A stretch of DNA of 25,467 nt from Ginkgo biloba. Its lineage: Eukaryota > Plantae > Ginkgophyta. The DNA is taken from assembly GCA_024626585.2 (NCBI GenBank), contig JANKJI020000002.1, forward strand, positions 228,261,484 through 228,286,950. The letters run 5' to 3'. Made by a program: the position numbers and the translations under genes. Positions 1 through 25,467 of the stretch are shown piece after piece; positions within the stretch are counted from its first letter, which is position 1, and the number at the start of each line of letters is the position of its first letter. The notes under the pieces were generated by a model. The model was not told the origin of the DNA, did not search any database, and saw nothing but the letters and a program-made list of their open reading frames with translations.

Positions 1-284
1 ACCCTCCAACTAATTTCACAATTCCCTTATGTTAACACCTTATTTTAAGCACTCATACAATTTTCAAGATTATATTCATGGTTTCAAAGACACACTTTGG
101 AAGTTCTGAAAGAAACAAAATGTGCACCAATCCTTTTTATTCATGAGGGGCATGTTACAATAATAATATCAAGAATGGATATTTCTAAAGAAACTCTTTT
201 GTGTGGCCTAAATGAACCTCGTATGGACAAGAGGAGATTATTATAGCATGGAAAAGACCCCTTATTTTATAAAAAGATGAATTC

Positions 285-1204
285 CAAAAAGGACATATCT
301 AAAAAGGGAGACCCCATGTGGAGATCTATTAGGGTTTCACAAGTGAGCCTCCTTACCGATGGAGCTTCTTTGCTTCCCCTAACTCATGAAGAGTTAAGAA
401 ATATTGTTAGAAGAGTCATCATCCTTGCTACATATGGGGGAGCATGGGAGGACCATCTTGGTGTGAGGAGGCTATGGAAAATTCCCTATTTTAATCCTTG
501 GAAGAACTTGTCCCCTATTTCCATCCTCTCTCTGATGGCAATTTAGTGCTCATCCCCTATTCCCGTCCTCTCTTTGATGGTGGTTTGGTATTATCTTACT
601 TCTCAAGTGGTTGTTTCCATATGCTCCAGTGGTGGTAGTGTCTTTAATTCTCTATTGGATACTATCCTCATAAGGTTATGGAAGTTAGGGTCTATTCTTC
701 CTATGGATATGGTGATGGTTCCCTACTCTTGTGACTTTAACTCCCTTCTCCTAATGGTTGTGGCTTCCTTTGGCTTATAGCTAAGTGGAAGGAGGGCATT
801 TTTTATTTTAGGGTTCTCACCTTTAGTGACTATGGTGGGCGCTTTTGTTGTGAAATTTAGTGTTCTATCTTCTCCTAGCATGCTACCATGCAGCTAGGGT
901 GCTTAATGTATGGTGTTTTAGAGGCAGATTCTTCTCTTCTTGCTTGTTCCCACTATTAGGGTTCTTATACCTAGTGTCTAGGGTTTAGTAAATATTTTTT
1001 CTCTCATGGCTCCTTGCATGGTGTCTATTTGACTATTGGCACCCTGTGTGGTGACCATGATTCAATCTACCCTTTGCAGAATTCCTCGCCCTTAGGGTAA
1101 GTTTCTATTGAGGACATTTGGTCTCAAGCCAGGGTTTTGAATGATGTAATTTTTTCAAATCATGCTAATAGAAGAATAAAATAGTTGCAATAAAATATAT
1201 ATAT
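285..1204 (+). mobile_element. 5'-truncated LINE (L1-like) / retroposed insertion
   Basis: Absent from copy 3, where GATGAATTCATCTTGG is contiguous. Flanked by the 8-bp direct repeat ATGAATTC (277-284, 1205-1212). Ends in AATAAA plus an (AT)n tail. The 5' end loosely resembles the HI.RE..CADLL RNase-H-like end of plant LINE ORF2, followed by a long GT-rich 3' UTR. Confidence 0.7.
511..582 (+). repeat. Imperfect ~30-bp direct repeat, 42-bp period, inside the LINE-like insertion
   Basis: tcccctatttccatcctctctctgatggca at 511 and tcccctattcccgtcctctctttgatggtg at 553. Confidence 0.75.
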
Positions 1205-1210
1205 ATGAAT

Positions 1211-2745
1211 TCATCTTGGAATTGAAGCAGCCAAAGTTTGACAATTTCCATCTTCCATGCTAGATGACTATGCTCTCATCAAATTAGAACTTGGAGTACA
1301 GTTTTAAATGTTAAAGTTGATTTTTGGTCTTAGTGAGGATATTAACCATGTCCCCTAATCAATCATATGAGGCCCCTCAATCTTTATTATGATCCCCATA
1401 ATAATAAGTATAGTATGGATTTCCCATTAAAGGGTAAGAGTTCTATTGACTTTCCCTAGATACCAAACCCCTCCATTTTCTCTAATATTTCTAATACCAC
1501 TCCTATAGTATTCCTTACAATGCAAGAACTTGTTGATAGGAATAGCATGACCTACATAGAATAAATGGGCTTGGAAAAAACCCACCTTACCAATGTAACC
1601 ACCTACATTTATCTTTCTAATTTCACTCATCCTACCTCTCTCCCTCATGATAAACTTGAGTAAGGTATATCAAGTCATATTCATCACCTAAATGTAACCA
1701 CTCACATATAGATCATGCACACAACCTATACCCTCCATACTATCCCTCATTCATTTTTATTATCATGTGTTGTACCTAATTGTTACTATCTCTACACCCT
1801 CTCGTTGTTCAAGTATGGTTGCTTTATAGAATATTCCACCAGTGTTCAAGAGATTTTTGGTATCTTCTAAGACATCCCAATGGACCAATCTATGAATAAT
1901 GCATGATATGAATCATGGATCATATGTATTGATATACAGATAATATTAATGAAGGTATATTGTCACTAAATATTAAAGATGCTCGCATGAGTTTGAGTAT
2001 ATCTAGGGTAGGCATGTTGATCGCTAAGTCGACCAGGAAGTGAAGTTTGTACTAGGAAGAAATTTCTCCCTATAAATATTGGTTCCATATCCTAATTAGA
2101 TAAGGATCCCTAAGATAATAAATTCATTATTTCCTAGGTCTCCTCTTACTCCCTAACTTGATTAGGAAAAGACCCAAAAACTAAGACTTTTTTATTTCTC
2201 ACTCAACTAGAAAGTAGTAAGTCACATCAAGATAATATATTTACACACCCCTCCCTAGGTTCTCTCACACACCTTAACTCAATCAGGGATCCAACTATGA
2301 ACCACTACAAGGGATCCACCACTTGTTATAATGATAAGGTGACAATGAGGATTTAAGACCAAAATGATAATGATGCATACGGTGTCTTTTCAAATGCCTA
2401 GATAGAAGATAAATATGAAAACTAGAATGATTGTGTGATAGTGAATTAGTAGTATAAACCCCAAAAAACCATTAATTATCACTATAATCCCTCCTATTAA
2501 TTCTCATATGTGTTTCATTCATCCCTAGTGCTATGCCAAAGAGCCTACCTTATCACTTATAAATATTCCTACTAAGCAAGTTTTATGTCTATGTTCCTAC
2601 CTTATCATGCATCCTTATTTATCCATATCTATGTTCCTACTTCACCAAGTCATTATAATCCATCCAAAATTCTTATTTGATCTTTGTGAGAATCTATAAT
2701 AAGACTAGTCTAATCCCTGCTAATTATTTATGTGAAATTGTGCAT
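1211..2745 (-). pseudogene. ORF-A copy 1: decayed antisense ORF of unknown function within the LTR
   Basis: Minus strand reads ...IINGFLGFILLIHYH...IIIILVLNPH...GVRGD...SCIIHRL...GDEYDL...KDKC.W...GGFFPSPFILCRSCYSY...NSYPLM and is conserved in all three copies. Start and stop are uncertain; an alternative start lies near 2487. Confidence 0.6.
2558..2565 (+). promoter_or_regulatory. Candidate TATA box upstream of ORF-B
   Basis: TATAAATA, also at 6305-6312 in copy 2 (TACAAATA in copy 3), about 240 bp upstream of the ORF-B ATG. Confidence 0.35.
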
Positions 2746-2802
2746 TATAAAAGAACAAAGTGGTCCTAACTATTTTCCTATTCAAAGATTGTGTAGGATA
2801 GC

Positions 2803-3586
2803 ATGAATGCCAGATATGTTTGGGTCACCAAAGTAGTTGAAGACCATTTATACCATTATGATCATGAATGGAAGTTATTCTTTGAAGTGAATGATAATAG
2901 GTAGCACAATCTGGCTTATATAACCTTGTAACAAGCCAAGATACTAGATTATGCATTGGCACCTTAGTTATATCTCATGTATCCTATGGTGATAGAAATG
3001 CTTCATCACCTTGAAGTGGGAGCTTTTTGTTTCCAAGACTGTGTTGTTCCTATTGATGGAGAACTAGTATCAGGGATAACTGGGTTACCCATGGAAGGTG
3101 TAGTTGTTGATCTAAAGAAATAGGCAAAAGGAGTCTATAAAGATTAGGTCGTCTAGAAATTATACTCTAGGTGTAATAAGGTAGATGTATGCAACAAGTC
3201 TAATGAAGGAGCTAAATGGGTTTCTCATATTATAGCTAGGTGATTGGCTTGATGGGATGCCAATACCTATTTGAGCTTGCATTATGCTACTATAACTATA
3301 AGAGTTACAACAAANNNNNNNNNNCTATGTTTAGGCCCCTTGGTTAGATGATAAACTTAAGGAGCACTGCACTTCCTTTCAGATGTTGGGATGCTTGTTT
3401 CTAATGCCTTCTTTGATCACCACCATTTGCATGGAAGCTATGGGGCTTCCTACATGGGTTGATCCAACATCCTAACCATGGTTGAATCTATATGCGTATC
3501 TGTGTATGAAGAAAGATTAGCAAAAGCATAAAACTGTTATGACCCATTTGGAGAACTTCTACACAACTATGTGGTGGCTAAATGAT
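2803..3586 (+). pseudogene. ORF-B copy 1 (N-terminal part): retrotransposon accessory ORF, plant-mobile-domain-like
   Basis: MNARYVWVTKVVEDHLYHYDHEWKLFFEVN...QAKILDYALAP*LYLMYPMV...VVPIDGELVSGITGLPMEG. The same frame is conserved in copy 2 with synonymous changes. Confidence 0.7.
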
Positions 3587-4478: not shown

Positions 4479-4586
4479 TTAACACTAAGCCCTTTGCTCC
4501 ATAAGCACATTATGAGATGCACTTCTTGCAACTTAACACTAAGTCCTTTGCTCCATTAGCACATTATGAGATGCACTTCTTGCAAC
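4479..4586 (+). repeat. Tandem duplication, 2 x 54 bp
   Basis: ttaacactaag(c/t)cctttgctccat(a/t)agcacattatgagatgcacttcttgcaac twice, 2 mismatches. Confidence 0.95.
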
Positions 4587-4949
4587 ATCTTTTACATCCG
4601 CCACACCAATCTTATTGTCTTCCTAAAGTTTGAAGCATCATTAATATTGTTGACACCTTATTTTAAGCACTCATAGAACTTTTAAGATCGGATTCATGAT
4701 TTCACAAACACACTTGGAAGTTCAGGAAGAAATAAAGTATGCATCAAGCCTTGCTATTCATGGAGAGCATGTTACAACAATAATATCAAGAATGGAGCTT
4801 TCCAAAGAAACTCTTTTTATGCGGTTTGAAGTTTCTTTGAGTATATGAACCCGATACAAGAATGAGGATATTATCATAGAATAGAGAAGATTCCAAATTT
4901 TATGGAAGATGAGTNNNNNNNNNNNNNNNNNNNNNNNNNNNNAACTTTG

Positions 4950-6235
4950 ATAACCTCCAACATTCATGTTGGAAGACTATGCTCTTGTCAAGCAAGGAAC
5001 AAGAGCTAACGTCATACATCCTAGTTGTCTTTTTTATTTAGTGAGGGGATGATCCTATCAGAAGCACTAGATTACGTGAAGTGTCAAGGAATGCATCGAA
5101 CATGAGAGGTCTATAATGAAGTCACATCACCCATTCTCATTAAGGGGGAGAAATTATTTATAAGAGAGGTGGTGCCCAAAAATGATATCTCCCATCAGAG
5201 CAAAATAAAGGATGGATTTATCATTAGAGGGTAAGAGTTCCATAGACTCATCCCTCATACTATACCCCTACTTTTGCTTAAATATTTCCAATCCCCCTCC
5301 CTTCATATTCCGTATCATGTTAGAATTTGGTCATAGGAACAACATGACCTATATAGCATAAGTAGGATTAGGGCAAACCTACTCCACCACTGTAATCTCC
5401 CACACTTGTCTTTCGAATTTCACCTTCTCCTTTCTTTCTCTCTATATTCCTAAAGTGCAAAGAATGTATCCTATATCTTTCATATTGTCCTTCGTTAAAC
5501 TTGATTATCTTATGTTGAACTCAACTACTAATACCTCTATTCCCTTTTGTTGGTCGAGCCCTATTGCTTTATATATAAGTTCTCACTAATATTCACAAGC
5601 TTTCTAGCCTTCCAAGATGTTCCCTTGGCCTAGTATTTTAAGTATGCACAAGATACAGCATGACTCATCCGTACTAGGACATATAACAACTTAATTAAGG
5701 TATATTATCATTGAAGACTAAAGATCCTTGCACAAATTTGAGTAACTCCTAGGTAGGCATGGTGATCCCTGGGTCATCTAGGGAATGGTGTCTAAACTAG
5801 GGAGTGGTCAATCCCCAAAAATATTTATGTCATAGTTGAACTAGAGAAGGTTCCCTAAGGAAGGAAAGCCACTACTACCTTGGTCTCCTCTTACTCCCTA
5901 GCTTGATCATGGAGTCATCCACCAACCAAGACATATTTGGTTCTTATTTTGACAGGGAAATGATGAGCCACATCAAGGTAAGGGATTTATATACCCCTTC
6001 GTGGGTTCCCTCTCACTCCTTAACTCAATCAAGGATCTAAACATAAACCAGAATGAGGGATTCATCACTTGATAAAATGGTAAAGTGATAGTGAGGATTA
6101 AATGCTAAAGTAATAATGATGGCTAAGGTGTCTCATTGAATGCCTAATTGACAACTAAAGGCACAATCCAAATCATCCATATAACATTGACTCGCCATCA
6201 CTTTTTCTAAAGAAACCATTAATTATCACTACCAT
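4950..6235 (-). pseudogene. ORF-A copy 2 (most diverged)
   Basis: MVVIINGF...GVRGDQGSSGFPSLGNLL...TQGSPCLPRSYSNLCKDL...KDKCGRLQWW...RSCCSYDQIL...WNSYPLM, with a few frameshifts and many third-position differences versus copies 1 and 3. Confidence 0.6.
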
Positions 6236-6449
6236 CCCCTCTTTTAATGCCCATGCGAGTGCCACTCATCCATAGTGCTATGCCAAAAATCTCACCTTGT
6301 CACTTATAAATATTAAGTTTGCACATATTATACAAAGCAATCTTCTTTGTTTGTGTTTATTTTCCAACTCTATTAAGTCGTTCTAACTCCCCTAAATTCT
6401 TATTTGCTCCTTGTAAGAATTTGTAATAAGTCTAGTCCAAGAGTGTTTA

Positions 6450-9400
6450 GAGCAACATATCTTTTTGGACCACCAAAGTGGTTGAAGACCATTTGGACCA
6501 TTATGATCATGAATTTTATATATTCTATAAATTGAATGAGAACGAGCATCATAATTTGGATTATATATCCTTGCAACAAGCCAGGATACTTGATTATACA
6601 GTGGCACCTCTGTTATATCTCCCATATCCTATGGTGAAATAAATTCCCCATCAATTTAAAGTGGGATAATTATGATTCTAATATAGTATTATTATTCTTG
6701 GTGTATAAATAGTATCAGGAATAACTGGGTTGCTCATAAGATATGCTATAGTTTATTTAAAGGAAGAGGTCAAAGGAGTTAATAAAGATTGGGTCATCCA
6801 AAAATTAGATTCAATAACTATTTGAGATAGCATTAGGCTATCATAATTATAAAATTGACATCAATCCATCTATATGCTTAGGCCCTTTGGTTAGCTAATA
6901 GACTTAAGGAGCACTACACTTCTTCTCAAATGTTGAACCACTCATTTCCAATGCCTTATTTGATCACTACTATTTGCATGAAAGTTATGGGATATCTTGC
7001 ATGGATTGATCCAGCATCCTAGCTCTGGTTGAATCTATACACACATCTACATATAATGAAAGTTCAAGGGAAGGATAAAAAATATATGGCCTATTTTGGA
7101 AACTTCTACACATCTCTATGGTGGTTGAATGATAGATCGTAGAAACTAAAAGGATTCTTTAATATATCGAAAAGAAATGGAGATAACTCCAATGGTAAAA
7201 ATAGTATAATATAACCTATTCCTCTCTATAAGGAATTCCAGATGATAAGAAAATTATTTCATCCTGGCCCCATCTCAGACAGATAGAATATATCATCTAG
7301 GGATTCAAATAAAAATATTAGACTAATTATAACCCCTAAACACAAAGGATTATGGCCATTGATCACCCACTGAATTTCCCAATGGATCAACATAAAATAA
7401 ATATCTTTTTTCACATGAACCCTTTATCCTAGGATTATCACCTCCAAACTTAATAGTGATTTCATTCCTATAATATTAGGAGAATACAATTACTACTGTG
7501 AAATTAAAAGAGACAAAGAAATAATTTTTCTAGGGTTCTAAGTCATCAAAATAGAAACATTTAGAATCTCAGTCTATTTCCTAGGTCCATTCCACTCACA
7601 CTAGAAAAGATGACCATGATAAGAGGAAAGGAGAAGATAAAGGTATATAAAAGAAATAGAAATCAGATAAGGTTAGAGAATAGAAGGCATAATAAGAATG
7701 TTAAAAGGACTCTAGCATCCCATTATTCTACTAATACTTCCAATGATCCTACAACCACATATTCAACACTCAATGTCTCACACAAAGTTATAAAAACCAC
7801 ACCCTTATCTATAAGTCAAATTAATATGTTTTCCCCCACTTCTACTCATCCTATAGTCACCCAAATCCCCTTGACTTAGTGGTATCATGTCTCTTTTAAG
7901 ATAGACCCTTCCTCTGAATCCTCCTCAAATATTATTCTACCCCATGCCCTATAGAAGGTTAAAGAGAAAAGGAAAGGCCACTTCATGCCTATAGTATAAG
8001 TTATCAAAGATACCCTGACCACCCAAGCTACTAGAAGATTAATCTCTAATACAACATAGGAATTAACAATAAGGGTAAGAGACTTAGATCTTGATTTAAT
8101 TCTTTAAGACATCTAATACGACAAGGAAAAAGATTCATAGAAGGATAAGATCAATCTATTACTACATGAGATTAGTGTGTTGGGTATGTTTCCTTTAGAG
8201 GAATGATCCACCCTATCTATAGAATTTCAACCTAACCTCTACCCTCATGTATATATCCTAATATAACAATCATTAGTGTTAAAGGAATCACCCCCAATTC
8301 CTCCCAAAGTACAAACCAAGATAGAATATTTAGAAACTTAGGTTATTAGATTCTAAGGGGAATGTAGCACCATCGAGATGTAACTACAAGAAAAATAAGA
8401 TGTCATTGATGAGATGCATAATAAGGTAAAGAAAAAAGACCAAGACTTCTCTAGTAATATTGATGAGATCTAAAATATGAAGGCAGTCCCTAATTGAATT
8501 ATAACTAATATATAGAAATAGTTATCTTCAGTGAGAGATGATGGTAATGGGATCAAAGGGGAAGTGATTAAAAGCATCAATAAATGTTCAATAGAAGTAC
8601 TATTAATATAGTCCTAGTTGGCAAGGTTGGTATAATTATAAAATCACCTAGTTGTAAAGAAGAAAACTTTAGAAGAGGGTTACTAAGAACTCTTAAGAAT
8701 AATAGACATAGAGAAGTGAGCAAGTAAGGAGGTCACCTGACTCCAATAGAGAAGAGAAATAACATCCCTACAATTGAAGGCTCTAGAAAAAAGGGAAGCT
8801 CATTTTAGTAAATAAATGAAAACCATCCAATTAATCAAGTAAACTCAAAGCCTAATGGATTAGGTCAAATATACCCTAGGGGATACACTAATTTATCAGA
8901 TCCTAATAATCATACATTCAAGAGCTCATCCTACCCATCATCTCTTTTAGGTACTTATCCTAAGAGATGAATCAAGTACAAATGAATATTATGGAAAAAC
9001 AGATTATACCTTCCATGAGCCAGATATCTCATATTCCCCCAAGAACAGATGCAGGTGAAAAGACCCTCAATACTATGGTAATAGAAAAGGACCAAACTCC
9101 CCTAGGTGATATGTCACTTCCCTTAGTGGATCAACTTATTAGGCCAACGAAGGAAGTATATGTACTAAGGAATGATAAAGAGCAAGTAATGATTGTTCCC
9201 TCCAATGAAGTTAAAATGGNNNNNNNNNNTCTTGTCTCCCCCTATAGACTAACCCAAAGAAGAGATTCTTATTTCAACCAAGAAAGAAGTAGAGGCAAGG
9301 AAAACACTTGATACATTAAACATCCCTGATGTTTCCCTCTTAGAAAGTTTATCTTCCCCCATGTGCCCAAGTCCTACTGAGCACTTACTTGAGGATGTGA

Positions 9401-9500
9401 AATCATCAGTGCATCTCTAAAAGAGAAACACTATGGACCCAAAAGGAGATCCCAAAATTATAATAATCATATCCTCCTTAGTGCCTCATATAACCATCCT
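6450..9500 (+). pseudogene. ORF-B copy 2: about 1000-codon accessory ORF (ITGL/PMD-like domain, basic and S/T/P-rich linker, coiled coil)
   Basis: KVVEDHLDHYDHE...QQARILDY...VSGITGL...YA*ALWLANRLKEH...FPMPYLITTICMKVMG. Basic DKRKGEDKG near 7620. About 170 in-frame heptad-like codons at 8305-8870 (KIEYLET*V...LKALEKREAHF) whose stops fit decay of CAA/CAG/CGA. The end is approximate. Confidence 0.7.
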
Positions 9501-9830
9501 CACCTATACCTACTAGATATAGTGCATCTCCCCTAATACAGTATGAGTCATCGATGAGTAAAACTAGTAATGCAGAGCGCTTTGAGAAGTTTTCTCAATT
9601 TCCCCCATAGATATGAATGCATCATTATCATCAAATCTAAATGGAATAATAATTAGAAGAAAAGTCACTCTTTCCATTAGATCCCCTTATAGGATGCATA
9701 CAAAATGATAACATCCATGATAATCATTGTAACCATAACAAGAATCCTCAAGAAACAGTCGTATGCCAACCAGTTGTTGAGAATGGTAATAAATGGTTAT
9801 GACAATTAAGTAACACCTCCGGGTAAAGGC

Positions 9831-9970
9831 TATAAGATGGAAAAAATAAAATGATAAGGGTTTTGAACATTTTGTATGTATGGAAATATATACTTTTGTA
9901 ATTAGGAGTGACTTATTTATAAGCATCACTCTTGGAGTGGGATTATTTTTAGATAATTGAATTTAATAAA
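9831..9970 (+). promoter_or_regulatory. Candidate LTR core promoter and poly(A) signal (U3/R region)
   Basis: TATAAGA at 9831 and AATAAA at 9965, between the end of ORF-B and the inferred LTR end. Motifs only, in AT-rich DNA. Confidence 0.25.
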
Positions 9971-10561
9971 GATTTTAGACTCTCATTTCTAGCTATGTTA
10001 TAATGTAAGCTTGTGAATTCTATCTTCTTATTGAAAGAATTACTTTTCATAATCTGATTCATATGGTTATACTATTGAATTTTAAAGTGAATATCAATTT
10101 GTACATTATCCTTTGTTATTATTCTAATAATTTTTTTTGATTAATATATGAAATGATGTTTATGATTCCCCTTCTTTGCAACTAAAGTAGTCATAAAGTT
10201 ATCCCCACTAGCCTCTATTATGCCTAATCCTTTGCTATTCAATCAAAATCCTAGCCCTTCTGGCATAGTAATTTATGTGGTGAAACTTTCAATTATAACA
10301 TCAAATATTCTTATATTTCTTACTTCTCACATAGATTATCTAGCATGATCCATATCCTGTTTTCTCTTCTTACATATATAGTGTGAATAGTTTTAATTTA
10401 TTTTAATAATTCTTTTGTTCTTTGAAATAAGGGAACTATCCCTCAAATTTTGGAAAGCATTATCTCCTTTTTATTATGTTGAGTTATCCCCTTTCTCTAT
10501 GTTCTAAACAAAATCCTTATAGTTATATTATAAAGGTGCAAACTCAAACATCATAAGTAAT

Positions 10562-10579
10562 TGGTGACCATACTGAAAA
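10562..10579 (+). promoter_or_regulatory. Degenerate primer-binding site (tRNA identity unclear)
   Basis: TGGTGACCATACTGAAAA shortly after ...CAAACA and about 85 bp before the gag-like YTRS start. Loosely resembles the Tat/Ogre TGGCGACTC.GCTGGGGA. Confidence 0.4.
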
Positions 10580-10646
10580 AATCCCAAAGTCTTAGCTAAT
10601 CATTAGTTTAAAATTAAAAAGTGTTAATGATAAAATCACAAGGAGG

Positions 10647-12108
10647 ACATATACAAGATCTCTCAAAGCCCAAGGTATGATTCAATAACTTCTTAGGTAT
10701 CCTCAAGGCAGAAAGAAGAGATGGTCCAAAATTAGTAGAGTCCCCTATACTCTAAAATTTGGTGAACTTGAGTCTTATAAAATTAAGACTTATAGTCTTA
10801 GTCCTCCAAAATTAATTAGGTCTAAATCAAAACAACCAGCATCACCTCCCATGCCTAAAGTTGTTCTTCATGTAAAAGCACATTATTTTCTATCTAATCT
10901 TATCTATCCTATGTCTTCTACTCTCCATATAAGCCACCAATACAAATGGCAATAACTATGCCTTAATGAACTAAATATCGCCTCAATATTGGATAGAGCC
11001 TTGATGATGTTCTCAATAAAGATTGGGATGCATGTCCCAAATTCAAAGGAGATGGTTCAACCTCTAGAGAATAACATGTAGAGATTTTTGTTGTAATATT
11101 TGGCAATTTTAACATAACCATTGAGAACATGGTTTTCAATATGTTCATACACACTTTGGAAGTAAAAGTTATTATATGGTACCAGTCATTACCTAATGGA
11201 TCCATCACTAGATGGGATACTCTCATAAAATACTTTATACCAAACTTCCTCTAAGATAAGACTATGGCAATCATAACCAAGAGTCATCTACTACAAACAA
11301 GGGAAATAAATAAAGTGTTAAAGACTTTGTCTCTCGATATGACGAAACCTTAAATTATATTACATAGAATTCTAGGCCTACTACTGAGGTCTAAAAGGAA
11401 TGATTCCTAGAGGGGCTTGATCCATATATGAGGTATGTAGTAGAAGATAAACTACCTATTGATTTTTAGCCACAAAGACAATATCTATAGACATAGAAGA
11501 AAGATTGATAAAGGTCGATAAAGTTAAACCTTTTAATTTTACTATTCTTAAAGAAAAAAATGGTGAAATTATATCCATGATAAATCCTTTGACTCAAGAA
11601 CTCCTCAAGAGGATAAGTAATAAAATTACTATCTTAAAAATATAATTCAAGGAATAGAACAACAATAAAGTCACCTTCTTACATAGGTCCAAGGAGGATT
11701 TGTTCACTTCTAATCATGAAGTGACTTATGAATATTATCATGATCTTGCTATAAATGAGAAAGATATTAGATATAAGGTTCTAGATAAACCATAGTCAGG
11801 ATCAAAGATTTCCCAGTAGATTTTAATATGAAATATTTAAAGAAGAATATTTTAACCCTTATGATGTATACTTAGTAGAACAAACTAGGTCTCAAGTTGG
11901 TAGAGATAAAATAACACATATTCCTCCTTAGAAATCAAGTAACCTTAATCCCTTAGACTCCTTCAAGACCACCACTTTAATATCTCCTATTCCTACATCC
12001 AATAGGCCTTAATCTATTACCTAAGGATCTATACCTCTATATGTTTTAAGGTTAGACTCCCCTATAAACAAGGCTACTATGAACCTGACCCTCACTCTAT
12101 TCTTCTCC
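10647..12108 (+). pseudogene. gag: Ty3/gypsy (Tat-like) gag, decayed
   Basis: YTRSLKAQG...DWDACPKFKGDGSTSRE*HVEIF...MFIHTLEVKVIIWYQSLPNGSITRWDTL...SVKDFVSRYD...FLEGLDPYMRY, a Retrotrans_gag pattern. Confidence 0.85.
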
Positions 12109-12308
12109 TTATAACTCTATTATTTCCTTTTGTAATATCTTATATATGTAATATCTCTTATATTGTAATATCCCACATGCATTAGTTAGTTGCATGTCGA
12201 GGATAGTTNNNNNNNNNNNNNNNNNNNNNNNNNNNNNNNNNNNNNNNNNNNNNNNNNNNNNNNNNNNNNNNNNNNNNNNNNNNNNNNNNNNNNNNNNNNN
12301 NNNNNNNN

Positions 12309-12360
12309 AAGGTGAGATTCTGTCCATCATGGGAAGTATCTTAAAAAAAATTACACTTAA
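12309..12360 (+). pseudogene. C-terminus of non-chromovirus Ty3/gypsy integrase
   Basis: GEILSI(N)GKYLKKNYT* with a 1-nt deletion; matches the NG.YLKKYY* end of Tat/Ogre/Athila pol. Confidence 0.7.
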
Positions 12361-12490
12361 AATTGTTACTCTAAGAATCTATATAAATATTGTATATATT
12401 AGGTTGTAATGTGTTTAGTGTTGTTCATGTATTTTCGCAAATAAATCAAGTATCCTAATTTTGCACAACCCACTGGGAGTAATCCAAACC

Positions 12491-12502
12491 AAGGAGGACA
12501 CT
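12491..12502 (+). promoter_or_regulatory. Decayed polypurine tract
   Basis: AAGGAGGACACT directly before the LTR start TATTGACACC and 130 bp after the pol stop. Confidence 0.55.
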
Positions 12503-14349
12503 TATTGACACCTTATTTTAGGCACTTATATAATTTACAAGATCATATTCATGGTTTCAAAGACACTCTTTGGAAGTTCAAAAAGAAATAAAATGTGCAC
12601 CAAGCCTTTTTATTTATGAGTTGCACATTACAACAATAATATCAAGAATGGAGATTTTTAAAGAAACTCTTATGTGTGGACTAAAGGTTTTCCCAATCGG
12701 TGAACTTCGTATGGAAAAAAGGAGATTATTACAACATGGAAAAGACCCCTTATTTTCTAAAAGGATGAATTCATCTTGGAATTGAAGTGGTCAAAGTTTG
12801 ACAATTTCTAACTTCCATGCTGAATGACTCTACTCTCGTCAAAGAAGAACCTAAAGTAGAGGTTTATATGTCATAACTTATTTTTGGTCTTCGCAAGGAG
12901 ATGAACCTACGTATATCTATACCTCATCCCCTCATCAATCATGTGAGGCCCCTCAGTCTTCAGTTATGACCCCGACCATAATAAGAAGAGGATGGATTAC
13001 ACATCAGAGGGTAAAAGTTCCATTGACTTTCCCTTCATACCAAATCCCTCCTTCTTCTCTATTATTTCTAATATTTCTCTTATCATCTTCCTCACCATGT
13101 AAGAACCTAGTGATAGGAATAATACAACCTACATAGAAGAAATAGGTTTAGGACAAACCCACCTTACAACTTTAACCACCCACATTTATCTTTCTAATTC
13201 CACTCATCCCACCTCTCTCCCTTAGCATGAACTTGAGCAATGTAGAGTAGGTCATATTCATCACTTGAATATAACCACTCATTTATTACTTCTACACACA
13301 ACCTATACCCTCCATATTATCCCTCACCCAATTTCATTATCCTATGATGGACTTGGCTATCACTATCTCTACACCCTCTTGCTCTTCAAGCCTGCTTTCT
13401 TTATAAAATCTTTCACCAAATTTTACAATATTTATGGCACCTTCCAAGATGTCCCAATTACCTAGTCTATGAATAATGCATGAGCCATAGAATGGCTCAT
13501 ATTTACTAAGATATACAGCATCTTAATCAAGGCAGATCATCACTAAATATTAAAGATCCTCACATGATTTCAAGTATATATGGGGAAGGTATGGTGATCC
13601 CTAGGTCGATCAAGGGGTGGTTTATGTATCAAGTAGTAGTTTCTCCCTCAAAATATTAGCATTCTATCCCAATTAGAGAAGGATGCCTAAGATAGGAAAT
13701 CCATGATTTCTTGGGTCTCCTCTTACTCCCTAACCTGATCAAGGAGAAACCTAACAACCAAAAATAATTAAGTTACATCAAGGAAAGAGAGTTATATAGC
13801 CCTCCCTAAGTTCTCTTACACTCCCTAACTCAGTCAAGGATACAAATATAAATCAGTGTCAAGGGTATTCCACCCATTAAAATGAAAAGGTGATAGTAAG
13901 GATTCAAGACCAAAATGATAATGACATTGAAGGTGTCTTTTTTAACACCTAGCTGAAATCCAAATATATAATCCAAAATGACCATATGGTAGTGAATTAG
14001 CAATACCAACCCTAAAGAACCATTAATTCTCACTACCATCCCTTATCTTAATGCTCATATGTGTGTCACTCATCCCTAACATTATGCCAAAGAGCATGAT
14101 TTATCACTTACAAATATTCCTACTAAGAAAGTTTCATGCACACTCAAAAAAGAATCCTTCTTTCTTAGTGTCTGTGTTCCTACTTCACCAAGTTATTCTA
14201 ATCCCTCCCAAATTATTATATTATCTTTGTGAGAATATATAATATGCCTAGTCTATTCCCTGCCAGTTTCTTCTGTGAAATTATGCATTGTAGAAGAGAA
14301 AAATGGTCCTTATTATTCTTCTAAGCAAAGAGCGTGTAGAGAAGCATAT
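12503..14349 (+). mobile_element. Tat/Ogre-like 3' LTR, copy 3, interrupted at 14350 by another element
   Basis: TATTGACACCTTATTTTAGGCAC after the integrase end and PPT. Colinear with copy 1 (30-284 joined to 1213-2804). Confidence 0.8.
12771..14288 (-). pseudogene. ORF-A copy 3
   Basis: Includes track ORF 13830-14039 (MVVRINGSLGLVLLIHYH...). Continues GVRGDPRNHGFPILGILL...SCEDL*YLVMI...SCIIHRLGNWDILEG...RLEEQEGVEIV...WVRDNMEGIGCV...DEYDLLY...GERWDEWN*KDKCGW...RESQWNFYPLM. Candidate starts are 14039 or 14288. Confidence 0.6.
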
Positions 14350-14543
14350 TGTTAAGCATTGGTATGCCTAACATATGCATAGTGTATCGTACCTCTATTT
14401 ATAATGCATTAATACCATAAGATGAGTACAAACACATACATAAGCCATTGTACATGGATATATGGAAAACTATCCAAGTCATTATATTAGTACTTATACA
14501 AAAGTACATACAACCCTGAAATCCCATTACATTATAATCATCA
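14350..14543 (-). mobile_element. Short (~190 bp) 3' LTR of an Athila-like Ty3/gypsy element
   Basis: Minus strand TGATGATT...CTTAACA with TATAAATAG (14395-14403). It begins exactly where homology to copy 1 stops and is adjacent to a PPT. Confidence 0.65.
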
Positions 14544-14555
14544 TCCCCCACTTAG
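14544..14555 (-). promoter_or_regulatory. Polypurine tract
   Basis: CTAAGTGGGGGA on the minus strand abutting the LTR. Confidence 0.7.
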
Positions 14556-14699
14556 TATCCTATAAGGTTCATATATATATAATGTGCAAATGGTTAAATA
14601 ATTGTTGTAATAGTTATAAAAGTCCCCAACTTGTGTCGATTGTTTCTCCCTAAGTTGGTGAGATGCTATCATTCCTTGACTTACGTCAATGGATCGACT

Positions 14700-16492
14700 G
14701 ATGTCAGCGAAGTATGTTATTATTTGGTGTTAGTGTTGGCCGAGTCCTCTCTAAGATAATTGGTGGATTCTCCTTTATCGGTGTTGGTCAAGTTCTTTTC
14801 AACATGGTCAATGGAATCCCCTTTGTTGGTCAAGGTTATATCCGACATGCATCAAATTCTCTATCCAATGCTCCTCCATTCCTAAAGCTTTGTCTTGTCC
14901 TAAGACAAGGACAAAAATGATTACTAAGTTTGTTATGGAGGAGATGTAGGTTTGACAGTATCAAGAAGAGCCAAAGATAGCTCCATCTATAATTGAGGCC
15001 ACTTCTTAGTGATCTAGGTAACTGATTATAGGTGTGTCTCTATGGTACTGGTGATAGTGGATCCATCAAGTTCTGGTTTGGTGACCTCCTTCTTGATCTA
15101 TCAAAGGTGATCCTGATAAATCTTTTCCTATGAATGCACCTATTTCTCAACAGATTTGATCTTGGATTTATAAAACTGAAGGAGGCCAAAGGTTTTATGT
15201 GTTTCTCCTTAGGTCTAAATGTAGCTTTACTAGGCCTATTGGTAGTGTGGATTTAGGTTGGTTGATTCCTCCATAGCCTCTATTTGCTAGCTCAATTGGT
15301 CGATGATTGTGTTGGCATGTTCCACCTTCAAACGTGCCTCCTACACTATTTATGGCTACTTTTGAAAGTACCAACCTAAGAATCTTTCTTCCTTGACCAT
15401 TGCCTCGACTACCTCTATGTAGGAGGAGTAGGTCGCCAATGACTCTTGGGATTTTTTTTTATCCTATTTAACCTTTTTCTTTCATGCTTGCAACTGCACC
15501 TCATACTCTTATTGAAATATTTAGAGAGATTACAACTCCTTATTGGTGGTCTATTTATATCTCTATAGAGTGGAAATTTGTTGTTCCATTTGACTACCCT
15601 ACTAGGCTTCCCTCCTGCTAGTTTTCTCTTATCAGTGGATAATGGTCCTTAGTATGTTTGTCTCTAAAATATTAGTAGGTAAGTCATGCTAGTCCATGAG
15701 ATAACCCCCTATATCTTTGGTATATTAGACGAGGTTGATCATTTCTTGGGTTGGCTCCTATATCTATTTTTCAAGTGCATTCACTTATTTCAACCAGACC
15801 ATGTTTTCCTCATGCATGATTTGTTGTGTCTGCATGAAAGTCTATGTCAGTAATCTAGATGTGACAATGGTGATAATAATGGGGGATTGACTCAAATCAC
15901 TACCATCAGAATTAACAAAGGTTTGTTAATGTCCCAAAACTTGAGTATGTTGTCCCTCATTACCTTATGCCTGCCATATTTTATACATTCCTTATCGGAC
16001 ATTCCCAAACTACCCATGTTAGTTTACTTTATATTTGTAGAACTTTTATCAGTTGATTATTGTTCCCTAGTTCATGCAGTATCTCCTAGAAGTTATTGTT
16101 CCTTGGTCAGACTAGTGAGTTTGTTGTTTTTTTTCTCATGCTGTTATGACAATGATTATGACTGTTGGAGTGGGTTAGTTTTCAATGACTATTGTTCTTG
16201 TTTAAACATTGGTTCAAGTCGTATCTTTAGCCCTTATATATGGTGCTTATTTTTGTTGTTGCTTTATCTATAGTGATTCAATTTGTTGTTTCTACTCAGT
16301 TTATTATTGTTGCTTGATCTTCTATTGCTGCTCAGTCTGCTATTATTGCTTAGTCTACTCTAATCTTCCCTCTTGCTATTGCTCTATTTGTTGTTACTAT
16401 TCTACCTACCGTGACCTAGTGTCTTATTGTTGCTCTATCTATGGATGATGTTTCTATTAAGATTCCTCCTTTTCTTCCTCCTATCGGTGTTG
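14700..16492 (-). pseudogene. 3' extra ORF (sense to pol): Gln-rich repeats plus coiled coil, decayed
   Basis: Restoring TAA/TAG to Gln gives QVEQQQQIEQQQEGRLEQTKQQQQTEQQQKIKQQQQTEQ at 16250-16490. EARLKVEHANTIIDQLS*QIEAMEES...KIKSVEK at about 15130-15350. Confidence 0.6.
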
Positions 16493-16592: not shown

Positions 16593-17390
16593 CCTTATTA
16601 GGTACAACCATCAAGGGTGACACCCATTAATTATCTGATATCAAATATATCATTCCTATAGATAAGATCTTCTCTAATTCTATTTCTATAATTTGCATCG
16701 TATTGGGATTAAGATGGCACTATGGTGATCTTACTAGCTTGGCATTATCTCTAATAAAAATATAGTATTGACAAATGCTTGGTGATATTCCCTTTAATTC
16801 TTTATGGTTCCATGCAAATGCATGTTGATTTTTTCTAAGCAATTCTAAAATATTTTCCTTTTGCTTGGTTGTGTATGGCCTACCAATAAGAAAGGTTTTT
16901 CTTTTTGCAATTTTGATTTCTTCAGTTTGTCATTTTTTCCAATTCTAGGATTGATGATCATTTTATTTTCCTAAAATAATATCTTTAATGTTCATCCCCT
17001 CTATATTAGTCCTTTTCATTTCCCTATAGAGCTCATCATCTTTGTCTCCAATCATGGACTGCTCTAATACCTCCATGACCATCACTTGAGAATCTTTCTC
17101 TTCCCCTTCTTCATTCCAATTAGATATGATAAATTGATATCCTTATGTATCTTCTTAATCCTCATCATAAAATTCTCTCCATTCAATCTAAGAAGTGGAA
17201 AATGGAAGAGGCTTGGTAGGTTTAAATAGTTATAAATACTTATGTTGTGAACTATGTTCTATTACCATTTTTCCTTATTAACATGTGATTACTACATATA
17301 TAGTGGAAAGACACAACCAACCCAAGATGATAGGATATCATTCCAAATACCTCTTGGTTTGTAGGACAATGAAGTCTACAAGGTACTCTC
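16593..17390 (-). pseudogene. pol: Athila-like pol fragment: protease C-terminus to start of reverse transcriptase
   Basis: YLVDFIVLQTK...YPIILG; LELLRKNQHAFAWNHKELKGISPSIC...LNPN...GMIYLISDN*WVSPLMVVPNK. Confidence 0.9.
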
Positions 17391-17494
17391 AATTAGTAAC
17401 AGCTAGAATAATTCCAATTTTGAGTTAGTAAGTTAAGCTAGATTTAGTTAGAAAAGCTCATGTAGGGAATCTTTAGTTAGTTACTATTAATAGA

Positions 17495-17582
17495 TGACAT
17501 GTAAAACATGCAAAATATGTAAGACATGCAAGTGACATGCAAGACATGTAAGTGACATGAAAGACATGCAATTGACATGTAA
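17495..17582 (+). repeat. Short tandem array of GACATGYAA (10-12-bp units, about 8 copies)
   Basis: gacatgtaa-aacatgcaa-aatatgtaa-gacatgcaagt-gacatgcaa-gacatgtaagt-gacatgaaa-gacatgcaatt-gacatgtaa. Probably within an LTR of a further nested element. Confidence 0.85.
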
Positions 17583-20697: not shown

Positions 20698-20939
20698 AGA
20701 TGGTTGTGCAAGTTTGCACACCATCCCCTCCTCCCAATTTTGTGACTAGTGTGTGCATTGGTGTGTGTGTTATGTTTATGGAGGAGGAGTCTTGAGCATA
20801 GATGCATGCATTCAGTTCTTGGTTAGTTCATGTTGTGTTCATTCAAGCTTTGGGATTAATTTCTCTGTGTTCATTCCGAGTCTTGGGATTATTTTTGCAT
20901 GTTGCGCACACTGATAATTCTACAAAGTGGTCTCAAAGC
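20698..20939 (+). mobile_element. 3' end of a 5' LTR plus tRNA-iMet PBS
   Basis: ...TTCTACA (20924), AAG, then TGGTCTCAAAGC (20928-20939), a 10/12 match to TGGTATCAGAGC. Confidence 0.6.
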
Positions 20940-21439
20940 AGATGGAGGGTTGTTTTGATGAACCTGTGATGGTGTTTGTGAAAGCTTCAGTTTTTGAATG
21001 AGCTTGTGGTTTTTTTTATGAAGTTTTGTGTGTGGCACACACACAAGCAAGTCAAGAACTAGCATAAAAGGACTACATGGTGATTCAACATGAATTAGTG
21101 GAACATGATCAATGAATGTTCTAAATTTCGAAATGGGAATGTGTACATGTGTGGACTACATATGTTTATGCAAAGTTTTTCAGAAGTTGTTGGTGTTAAA
21201 TTTGTGTGGATAATTCTTCCAAAGGCATTTTGTTAGGGTGATGTGAGTGATTCCACCCAACATTATGGTTGCACGCTTCAAAGTAATTGCCAAGTACCAT
21301 TGCATCTTATATGACCAAGAAACATTAAGATAGGCTCCACAAAAGTACGAAGACAAGGAAAGAAGATTAAACCAATACCACATTCTGTCATTATGCATTA
21401 TTTGATAATTCTAAAACATGACATGCACCCTCATAACTA

Positions 21440-21856
21440 ATCATGCCAGGATCATTTGTAGTTGAAGTGTCCTTCGAATCTGAGGGATCAATTTCTTTGT
21501 GAATTGTATGTTATTTCTCCTCTTTAGTTGTTAAAGATCCTTCTTTATACAATTTTAAGAATCTATCTTGTCCCAAGAGAAACTTTAGAATTTTTCCATC
21601 ATCTTCAAATACCCTCCAATGATCTACATTATCAAGTACTGAGGTTTGATTGATTTTAAAATGAGCACTAGAGCTTCACACTCGATCATATTATTAGTAC
21701 ATTTAAAATTCAACCGATATGAAAATGGAATCATATGACAATTAGGAGCATGGAATATAACACTAGCTCCTACCCCTGCCTTTAAATTTGTTCCATAAAA
21801 AGATATGGTCCACATGAGAGTGCTCCTCTTGTTGTCTTCTTCATATTGTTCTTCTT
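21440..21856 (-). pseudogene. Tat-lineage additional (archaeal-type) RNase H fragment with internal deletion
   Basis: WTISFYGTNLKAGVGASVIF...IPFSYRLNFKCTNNMIECEALVL joined directly to SVLDNVDHWRVFEDDGKILKFL. Confidence 0.85.
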
Positions 21857-24429: not shown

Positions 24430-25467
24430 AATTTCATCCAAAAATGACTTAAAAAATGATTTTCCTTGTCTAATATTATGGACTTTGAAAGTCCAAAGTG
24501 AACCCACATATGATGGAAGAATAATTTGCCCACCTCTTGGCCAGAGATGGTAATCTTGCATGGAATCACCACTTCCATCTTACCAAATCAATCGAACACT
24601 ACTAGAAATTAGTCGTGACCCTATTGCATCTTTGGAAATCCTTTAAGGAAATCCATGGGGATGCTCTCCCATGATCAACATGGTACTGGAAATGGCATAT
24701 ATAATCCTATTATTTTATTGGTAGTCTTTGAGGTACTATAAAAACACATTCCATAATGAACTTAGCAACATCCATCAACATCCATGGATAATACACATAC
24801 CTCTATAGGTTTGAAAGTGTCCTTTTAACTCCAAAGTGTCCCACCACCTTAGAAGTATGAGCTTCTCTCATCAATGCAACTTTCCCATCAAGGATACATA
24901 ACATTTAATTATGATATAATAAACCTTCTTATAAATGAAAATATTATCATTTCTCCCCTTATCATAATGTTGTCATAATTAGATGAAGTACCTTTTCAAC
25001 CTCATATTAGATACTAAATTCCTCTAAAGGAAAAGTTTGTAACTGCATCACCACTATCAAGGAAATCAATTTAGGTAGTCTTCATAGCATGCCATTAATA
25101 TTTTTTATTTCCCCCTTCTTATGCCCAATGACTAGATTAAAATATTCTAGGTACGCCATCTACTTGGCATGCCTTTCCTAATGTAACTTTGACTATGTCT
25201 ACATGAGTTGAAGTGGCCTATGGTTGGTGTTAATCATTGTATTTTTTTCCAAAATGTATGCCCTCCAATTCTTTATCACTTTATGTATAGAATATATCTC
25301 TTTATCATACACTGGGTAATTCAATATAGGTCGCGAAAAGGTTTCAAAATGATACACAATCACTATCCCTTCTTACATAAGGACAACTCCCAATGCATAA
25401 CTTGATGCATCTACCTTAATATCAAAAGGATTTTATAGATTTAGAAAACACAACACTGGTGCTTCAT
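24430..25467 (-). pseudogene. pol: Ty3/gypsy chromovirus-type RNase H plus integrase (HHCC and core N-half), decayed and truncated
   Basis: PFDIKVDASSYALGVVLM...NYPVYDKEIYSI...NHRPL; REAHTSKVVGHFGVKRT...WESIPMDF...GHD*FLVVFD*FGKM...FGLSKSIILDKENHFLSHFW. Confidence 0.9.

Follow-up and report, generated by a model that had tools for sequence, protein, structure and literature searches.

Decayed retrotransposon blocks in Ginkgo biloba that may be giant long terminal repeats with one sense accessory gene

We analysed a window of 25,467 nucleotides of Ginkgo biloba DNA (contig JANKJI020000002.1, positions 228,261,484 to 228,286,950 of the forward strand). It consists of elements nested in one another. 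The features that concern us are the following, in positions of the window.

30..3586, plus strand: copy 1 of a repeated block, comprising the terminus, the ORF-A region and ~250 codons from the start of ORF-B; it ends at an N gap
4648..10553, plus strand: copy 2, a putative complete LTR of ~5.9 kb, with TG at 4648 and CA at 10549-10550 or 10552-10553
5200..6300, no strand assigned: 'ORF-A' region, homologous in three copies, without demonstrable coding signal
6305..6312, plus strand: TATA-like box ~150 bp ahead of ORF-B; its position is identical in copies 1 and 2 and shifted by one base in copy 3
6456..9850, plus strand: ORF-B, a sense gene in decay, at most ~1,100 codons long, with a coding signal that is clear to 9489 and suggestive at 9490-9850
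9913..9970, plus strand: TATA-like site (9918) and AATAAA (9965), the predicted U3/R/U5 boundary region
10562..10575, plus strand: PBS-like site, 8-11 nt past the candidate CA ends
10660..11900, plus strand: decayed gag (Pfam Retrotrans_gag, E 0.051, below the cut-off)
12075..12208, plus strand: start of an unrelated LTR of very high copy number, which sits as a nested insertion between gag and the integrase tail and is followed by a 100-N gap
12309..12360, plus strand: integrase-type C-terminal tail and stop (17 codons, ...GKYLKKNYT*), too short for Pfam
12491..12502, plus strand: PPT-like tract directly before the terminus of copy 3
12503..14348, plus strand: copy 3, the start of a 3' LTR that includes the ORF-A region and is truncated by another insertion at the ORF-B start

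A sequence-only reading of this DNA had proposed that one terminus opens three homologous blocks, and this was borne out. The three blocks lie on the same strand and share a common start base (30, 4648 and 12503), at which homology among them ends exactly; the three left flanks are mutually unrelated. Self-BLAST among the blocks gave E values from 1e-41 to 0. The 17-mer quoted for the terminus is exact in copy 2 but is not found in copies 1 and 3, which begin with TGTTAAC and TATTGAC (TG decayed to TA), respectively. The best-conserved part is the first ~260 bp (73-88% identity), where read coverage is deep. Copy 1 is split by a 920-bp insert at 285-1204. Copy 3 runs for 1846 bp up to the point equivalent to the ORF-B start, where a TG-starting sequence interrupts it at 14349; the claim that this LTR continues through ORF-A to the start of ORF-B therefore stands. 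Contigs from other copies join 14347 to 6459 (two in sequencing run X11 and two in X12).

All copies of the block are heavily decayed and neither ORF-A nor ORF-B is open. Only six stop-free stretches of at least 100 aa occur in the whole window, none of them an intact ORF. With copies 1 and 3 truncated, no intact element, two full direct repeats, target-site duplication or solo LTR was seen. Nothing after 7133 has a second copy in the window, the 3' part being present in copy 2 only. The K2P distance is 0.44 between copies 2 and 3 and 0.26 between copies 1 and 3, which makes it improbable that copies 2 and 3 are the LTR pair of a single insertion.

The start of copy 3 lies 142 nt past the integrase-type stop and directly after AAGGAGGA plus CACT, with no N in 12309-12503. 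The order of integrase stop, PPT and LTR start without a gap, as first read from the letters, was thus confirmed, and the expected LTR start with TG directly after a PPT is present in copy 3 in the decayed form TA. One contig from another copy aligns with 12479-12805 across the PPT-like tract (62 differences), and a contig from a further copy links 12360 to 12457. The tail, which we take to be an integrase-type C-terminus by its motif, consists of only 17 codons after the 100-N gap. No RT, RH or INT core belonging to the family of the block was found in the window; RT and RH are either missing or concealed by the gap. Gag and the integrase tail are separated by that gap and by the unrelated LTR at 12075-12208, which had summed depths of 16,000-250,000 in three contig runs, loose ends, and a purine tract before 12077.

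At the other end of copy 2, the site at 10562, which by its motif is presumably tRNA-Arg-like, was the best-scoring PBS-like TGG site within 4648-14348. No conserved PBS-like site precedes it: the other regex matches (5170, 6602 and 13435) are all inside the block and each occurs in one copy only. The earlier statement that no convincing PBS comes before this point accordingly holds. The CA ends nearest the PBS lie 8 and 11 nt before TGG 10562, and no CA is placed directly at the PBS. An inverted match between the block ends comprises only 7 of 10 positions and ends 17 nt before the PBS-like site. Gag showed stop depletion (z -2.9, 1 of 150 shuffles) and codon periodicity (p 0.001). The proposal that copy 2 reaches a CA, a PBS and gag at about 10550 thus found support in the PBS-like site, with gag weak by its Pfam score. 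A T-rich stretch (43% T) without stop depletion follows 9913-9970.

The frames of ORF-B and ORF-A had been picked by eye ahead of testing. For ORF-B, the coding signature was as strong as that of gag (best-frame cost z -2.6, 1 of 150 shuffles). Periodicity of the form G1>G3>G2 was found in three of four parts (p 0.001, 4e-4 and 9e-6; p 0.37 in the fourth), and N-terminal parts that had been held out reached z 3.5 and 2.8 in the frame expected for ORF-B. Over 118 codons, copies 1 and 2 had no stop in common in the ORF-B frame vs 1-7 in the other five. Coding statistics hence support the claim of a sense gene inside the block, as a relic that is not open. The signal for 9230-9850 alone was not significant (z -0.6), and no purifying selection was seen between copies 1 and 2 (pN/pS 1.06). 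The N-terminal domain of ORF-B is rich in aromatic residues and is joined by a linker rich in S, P and T to a charged part that resembles a coiled coil; from this layout and its motif we assume a protein of the PMD (plant mobile domain, PF10536) plus coiled-coil type, a label that no Pfam match backs. Pieces of ORF-B had no match in Pfam, PDB or databases, with Pfam also missing aRH-like and RT-like relics of neighbouring elements and so having low sensitivity on such decayed DNA. Word-based protein searches confirmed none of 159 candidates for the middle part and none of 181 for the N-terminal alignment; PDB sequence searches gave no match below E 0.4, and AlphaFold models had a mean pLDDT of 33 and 30. 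The TATA-like box at 6305 is weak evidence, TATAA being found 30 times in 4648-10600. We rejected a minus-strand reading, with the TG as the far end and ORF-B as a TatIII-type antisense ORF: gag, integrase tail and PPT beside the block all read on the plus strand, and ORF-B is not followed by any pol on the minus strand.

Contigs of sequencing runs showed homologous copies at other places in the genome, along the entire block. In run X11, which may come from the source sample, contigs of the same locus with no other letters cover 4792-7567 and 7588-9997. Runs X7-X10 and X22-X24, in which few words matched, did not enter the analysis. Among the matches listed (40 of 548), variant-carrying contigs from other copies in each run numbered 33-57 at 4737-4754, 30-41 at 10151, 6-12 at 10554 and 2-8 at 10596. 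Such counts are what a single repeat unit would show at its two ends if fewer copies continued into the internal region. A 2,509-nt contig aligns with 10055-10500 and continues for ~2 kb unlike the window. None of the other-copy pieces listed bridges 9500-9900. Neither terminus was seen among the loose ends listed (24 of 4,168 and 24 of 6,895), a search of low power. In viral contigs, none of 95 and none of 21 pattern matches was confirmed as a related locus, and the terminus pattern had no hit. Its single hit in metagenome contigs lay in a bacterial contig and was discarded as a 24-bp coincidence.

We consider it somewhat more probable than not that the block belongs to an old Tat-like Ty3/gypsy family with ~5.9-kb LTRs and one sense accessory gene, ORF-B, in U3. 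A giant LTR is the most economical reading of the shared terminus, the PPT-like tract, the lack of an earlier conserved PBS and the matching copy numbers at the two ends, and a single family accounts for gag behind the CA end as well as for integrase ahead of the TG start. Of the earlier interpretation, the giant LTR with a relic of one sense gene was kept and the second, divergent gene was dropped.

That fuller version placed ORF-A on the minus and ORF-B on the plus strand of the LTR, as a divergent pair whose expression would start from the 6300-6450 spacer. In its favour, all three copies retain the ORF-A region, and one minus-strand register had the fewest stops in the upper part (40 vs 45-64) together with the most conservative changes (mean BLOSUM 0.60 vs 0.14-0.27), with periodicity at p 0.005 in copy 1. 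The minus strand is also G-rich across the region and would thus decay faster to stops. However, the register scored equally well or better on the plus strand, stop depletion was absent in every copy (minus-strand z +1.3, +0.1 and +0.6), codon-model z values did not exceed 2.3, with strands mixed, and no G1>G2 pattern was found (p 0.18 in copy 3, 0.54 in copy 2). No frame was singled out by dN/dS, which was below 1 in nearly all frames because the decay is transition-rich. A profile of the upper ORF-A alignment had no hit at E 0.001 among 1.84 billion proteins, and a word-based search with copy 2 confirmed none of 260 candidates, its query lying partly in a frame later judged wrong. Identity of copies 1 and 2 is lower in this region (68%) than in ORF-B (76%). 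With no stop depletion, clear codon pattern, settled strand or homolog for ORF-A, the 'divergent two-gene cassette' is unsupported and we regard this version as unlikely. More likely, the 1.1-kb region is non-coding U3 or a gene that was dead before the subfamilies split. It is likewise unlikely that a gymnosperm Tat-type family uses its 5.9-kb LTR as a two-way module, with two U3 accessory genes that are doubled in each element and left whole in solo LTRs. If true, such a module would be a plant counterpart of sag and nef, hidden from surveys by LTR-length caps.

The block could also be a nested mosaic, in which the terminal ~0.7 kb of copy 2 (beginning at a TG in 9809-9915 and ending at 10553), the PBS and gag form a second, short-LTR element inserted in the ORF-B-bearing block; the block would then start as an LTR of undefined true length and end. 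The depth in run X11 rises about sevenfold from ~300 at 9809 to ~2,100 at 9915, after a minimum at 9370-9780. Other copies have an LTR-start-like TG at 9809 (chance in 5.9 kb about 0.03) and the window has one at 9897; the distance between copies 2 and 3 and the abundance of nested elements also suit a mosaic. On the other hand, contigs from other copies still match the window left of 9809 (in each run, 1-4 at 9790 and 5-9 at 9719), no purine tract precedes 9809, and no pile of at least 14 loose contig ends was seen there among the matches listed. A mosaic would further need two Tat-like families interleaved in one orientation, the repeat that follows integrase and PPT is of the 4648 type and not of the 9850 type, and copy numbers match at both block ends. 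A separate nested element comprising the last ~0.7 kb and gag, which had been named as fatal to the giant LTR, is thus weakened by alignments left of 9809, yet the depth jump speaks for it, and we rate it as rather unlikely. Very improbable, in our view, is an array of head-to-tail elements sharing an LTR of a few hundred bases, with ORF-A and ORF-B as Ogre-like 5' internal ORFs. The conservation and deep coverage of the first ~260 bp would agree with such an array, as would the sense PMD and coiled-coil extra ORF that Ogre carries at its 5' end, upstream of gag (PMC4408406). Against it, no PBS-like site past the first 260 bp is conserved in three copies, and the best one comes after ORF-B, directly before gag, preceded by CA and the inverted terminus match. 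This position of the PBS largely refutes the array.

Pol of Ogre, a group described from angiosperms, in contrast to our gymnosperm host, has an integrase-type end. Its LTRs of 1.9-6.5 kb (PMC6431247) include the size of the block, and 89% of Ogre elements in the supplement to PMC6317226 have a tRNA-Arg PBS. Unlike in our block, where the sole good PBS-like site lies between ORF-B and gag, the extra ORFs of Ogre are 3' of the PBS in an internal region of 11-13 kb (PMC6431247). TatII is a gymnosperm lineage of OTA/Tat whose Pol is expected to end in integrase, aRH being upstream of RT, and its sizes of up to 18.1 kb approximate two 5.9-kb LTRs plus gag-pol. It differs in having mostly tRNA-Asp or tRNA-Asn types rather than the tRNA-Arg-like PBS that we presume here. 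The supplement to PMC6317226 gives tRNA-Asp and tRNA-Asn as the main TatII types and lists, for 27 REXdb elements, sense extra ORFs 5' (23%) and 3' (26%) of the polyprotein. This is the pattern that we would expect from an ORF lying within both LTRs. In lineage II, no extra ORFs were found with LTRs capped at 2 kb (PMC4408406). A Pinus taeda element of that lineage (17.7 kb, 1,109 copies; PMC4408406) fits the predicted size but was called under the same cap, and we did not count it as support. TatIII resembles the block as a gymnosperm lineage with a tRNA-Arg PBS in 64% of elements (PMC6317226 supplement) and a PMD extra ORF (PMC4408406). It differs in that this ORF is antisense and in the 3' internal region, with aRH at the very end of Pol. 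ORF-B is in sense orientation, and the presumed integrase-type tail ends pol 142 nt before the terminus. The window holds no pol core or aRH of this family, and the Tat-like label is tentative. In MMTV and HIV, the accessory ORFs sag and nef overlap U3 and are thus copied into both LTRs; these are vertebrate retroviruses with short ORFs and LTRs, for which no relation in sequence is expected. Retrosat2, RIRE3 and RIRE8 of grasses belong to the chromovirus lineage. Their LTRs exceed 3 kb and they have an ORF0 of undescribed function, which differs from ORF-B in lying upstream of gag-pol and was queried apart from the LTR (PMC3485330).

If the giant-LTR reading is correct, ORF-B would lie in U3, upstream of the putative TATA/poly(A) region near 9915-9970. 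On genomic RNA it would then be at the 3' end, between PPT and poly(A) site, and each round of reverse transcription would copy it into both LTRs. Its own promoter, to which the TATA-like box at 6305 would belong, could express it as a separate mRNA that would end at the poly(A) signal of the LTR itself. The protein is likely an accessory factor like those in the internal region of Ogre/TatIII, moved to U3 by recombination, and it would most likely have a nuclear role, directed at silencing or at the RNA of the element. Copies 1 and 3 are sister copies and may represent the LTR pair of a single old insertion; copy 2 with gag would then be nested between them as a second member, more distantly related.

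Solo-LTR formation normally deletes the coding part of an element. A gene in U3 would be duplicated at every replication and would outlast solo-LTR formation. The copies in the window are dead relics. Extra ORFs of plant elements are described as belonging to the internal region (PMC7264820), and in our search of the plant literature we found no ORF described inside an LTR. An accessory gene in the LTR, if true, would occupy a location absent from the descriptions in plant surveys and would point to an annotation blind spot. Such a family would spread accessory genes across a very large genome, each equipped with a promoter and poly(A) site of its own.

Three homologous same-strand blocks start at positions 30, 4648 and 12503 of the window, as found by self-BLAST and alignment. 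All three become homologous at the identical base and have unrelated left flanks, so we conclude that this is a real mobile-element terminus, as the sequence-only reading had proposed. The 17-mer quoted there for it is exact in copy 2, but not in copies 1 and 3. The main features are:

from 30: copy 1
4648-10553: copy 2
~5200-6300, copy 2: ORF-A region, proposed as a minus-strand gene
~6456 to 9489, perhaps 9850, plus strand: ORF-B, a decayed frame
10562: PBS-like TGG site
~10660-11900, plus strand: gag
12309-12360, plus strand: integrase-type tail
12491-12502: purine tract (PPT-like)
from 12503: copy 3, interrupted at 14348

Inspection of the sequence confirmed that an integrase-type stop and a PPT-like tract precede copy 3 without a gap; the order is a 17-codon integrase-type tail, a 142 nt spacer and the purine tract. 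Among the 24 of 20,173 pieces listed, a contig of one other copy of the family aligns across the tract (12479-12805, 62 differences) and another connects 12360 with 12457. We therefore regard this adjacency as a probable family feature rather than the chance insertion that had been raised against it. An identical 10-mer purine tract occurs twice, 80 nt downstream of the PBS-like site (10640-10649) and immediately before copy 3 (12491-12500), possibly by chance. Other-copy contigs connect 14348 directly with 6459 (at least two each in the public sequencing runs X11 and X12), and copy 1, starting at the terminus, extends into ORF-B. The terminus, the ORF-A region and the beginning of ORF-B thus form one unit. 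Both the family and its 5' terminus are real; the reading with a short LTR and internal ORFs is very unlikely. Copy 1 carries a 920-bp insert (285-1204) between two direct copies of an 8-bp sequence (277-284 and 1205-1212); the insert ends in a TA run and has no Pfam match in six frames. Directly upstream of copy 2 is a 54-bp tandem duplication (4479-4586), with a joint at this place in one X11 and one X13 contig.

The window is a heap of old plant retrotransposon relics nested in one another. It is AT-rich, with CpG strongly depleted (observed/expected 0.10-0.15 where measured), contains 848 N and has only six stop-free stretches of at least 100 aa. Neighbouring features are:

12075-12208: beginning of an LTR with very high copy number (summed depth up to 150,000-250,000 in two runs); reads from other copies show a purine tract before it
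14349-16490: TG-starting insertion interrupting copy 3, with a low-complexity N/S/R-rich minus-strand frame near 16200-16490
16594-17200, minus strand: N-terminal RT-like relic, Tat/Athila-type, recognised by eye; no Pfam match
17494-17582: 9/20-bp tandem array
21420-21854, minus strand: aRH-like relic, recognised by eye and given no support by Pfam and PDB searches, then non-coding DNA and a minus-strand purine tract with TG start (20700-20740)
24630-25467, minus strand: relic of another Ty3 element with RNase H (PF17917, E 1e-16) and integrase zinc-finger (PF17921, E 4e-8)

With the aRH recognised by eye, the arrangement at 20700-21854 is the TatIII layout; an excerpt of PMC13477047 restricts TatII and TatIII to gymnosperms. 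Together these would point to a gymnosperm as the host.

The K2P distances were 0.26 (copies 1-3), 0.44 (2-3) and 0.43 (1-2), and copy 2 has 197 private sites in the ORF-A region versus 108 and 104 in the other two. Indels at 1824, 2465, 13401 and 14016, some of them frame-breaking in the ORF-A region, are common to copies 1 and 3 versus copy 2, which makes copies 1 and 3 sister copies on the alignment. Taken with the distances and private sites, they indicate that copies 2 and 3 are probably not two ends of one insertion. That may hold for copies 1 and 3, with copy 2 and gag nested between them. Gag and the integrase tail have a foreign LTR of high copy number and a gap of 100 N between them, so that we infer the link between the two.

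ORF-B passed three coding tests that gag likewise passes or calibrates. Against local dinucleotide shuffles (n=150), stops were depleted in ORF-B (z -2.6, 1/150) and gag (z -2.9, 1/150), with 0.1 to 1.3 in two control regions. Codon periodicity (G1>G3>G2) was significant in three of four ORF-B parts. Under a position model that had been trained with other relics, held-out N-terminal parts scored z 3.5 and 2.8 in the expected frame, and 6873-7560 only 0.6. The coding signal reaches 9489, 9230-9850 by itself being non-significant, and comparing copies 1 and 2 gave a pN/pS of 1.06. An ITGLP motif presumably resembles PMD, a label backed by no search of Pfam, PDB or protein databases. Judged by composition, ORF-B would have an N-terminal domain rich in aromatic residues, an S/P/T-rich linker and a charged helical part, resembling the PMD plus coiled-coil ORFs that part of PMC4408406 describes in Tat lineages IV and V.

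ORF-A failed the tests that ORF-B passed. Its minus-strand stop-depletion z was +1.3, +0.1 and +0.6, no G1>G2 pattern was seen, the best codon-model z (2.3) was matched by the plus strand, and its upper part had no match among 1.84 billion proteins. The divergent minus-strand gene was thus not borne out, and a giant LTR with ORF-A and ORF-B facing apart is doubtful. One ORF-A register does show slightly fewer stops and more conservative changes, and ORF-A may be a gene that decayed earlier.

Copy 2 had been described as reaching a CA, a PBS-like site and gag near 10550. The site at 10562 is the best match among all TGG sites of 4648-14348 to what we take to be the tRNA-Arg-type PBS motif; remaining PBS-like matches lie inside the block, each in one copy only. 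It is followed by a weak gag (Pfam E 0.051, plus coding statistics). The candidate CA ends are 8 and 11 nt upstream of the site, and a 7/10 inverted match with the terminus stops 17 nt upstream of it. REXdb searches for a PBS 0-5 nt downstream (PMC6317226), so this 3' end is not clean.

X11 contigs of the same locus cover 4792-7567 and 7588-9997 with zero differences, this run possibly being that of the source sample, and shorter X12 and X13 pieces agree. By these contigs the 10-N gap at 9220-9229 is probably 0 bases long; for the 28-N gap at 4915-4942 they give either 0 or 23 bases. Among the 40 of 548 rows listed, other-copy contigs with a variant numbered at least 33-57 per run near the 5' end, at least 30-41 at 10151, at least 6-12 at 10554 and at least 2-8 at 10596. 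One 2.5-kb contig departs from the alignment at 10500. These observations fit one repeat unit with two conserved ends, but depth at 80% identity also tracks conservation, and the gag core is deeper still. Neither terminus was among the few loose ends listed (24 of 4,168 and 24 of 6,895), and the read test was therefore unable to fix the termini.

The main rival is a separate short LTR nested in copy 2 and starting in 9809-9915. Depth has its minimum at 9370-9780 and rises about sevenfold across 9809-9915, where LTR-start-like motifs are present. However, other copies also align to the left of these motifs and no purine tract precedes them, and we consider the nested LTR rather unlikely. We lean towards an LTR of ~5.9 kb that contains the relic of one long sense gene.

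MMTV sag and HIV nef are comparison cases for such a layout. The full-text literature searched, with most subscription papers outside its coverage, held nothing on point for an ORF inside a plant LTR and no gymnosperm case. Sections of the review PMC7264820 place additional plant ORFs in the internal region. The block falls within the Ogre LTR range of 1.9-6.5 kb (PMC6431247, in excerpt), and Retrosat2 LTRs exceed 3 kb (PMC3485330, likewise), so its size alone is not new. PMC4408406 set a 2 kb LTR limit. In passages of PMC6317226, TatII has sense extra ORFs on either polyprotein side (23% and 26% of 27 elements) and sizes up to 18.1 kb; the layout may therefore already be within the REXdb data set.

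A TATA-like site at 9918, AATAAA at 9965 and ~560 T-rich bases up to the PBS-like site would make an ordinary R/U5 layout with ORF-B in U3. Copies 1 and 2 share a TATA-like box at 6305 that is off by one base in copy 3; this is weak evidence, as such motifs are common in the region. With this layout, ORF-B would lie at the 3' end of the genomic RNA, reverse transcription would copy it into both LTRs, and it could be transcribed by itself from any LTR, including solo LTRs. Solo LTRs are few in spruce according to part of PMC5751070, so that any solo-module effect would be limited in a conifer. In the way it works, the element would resemble Tat/Ogre elements that carry an accessory gene, a functional likeness rather than a lineage assignment. 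By analogy with the extra ORFs covered in part of PMC7264820, ORF-B most likely had a nuclear accessory role.
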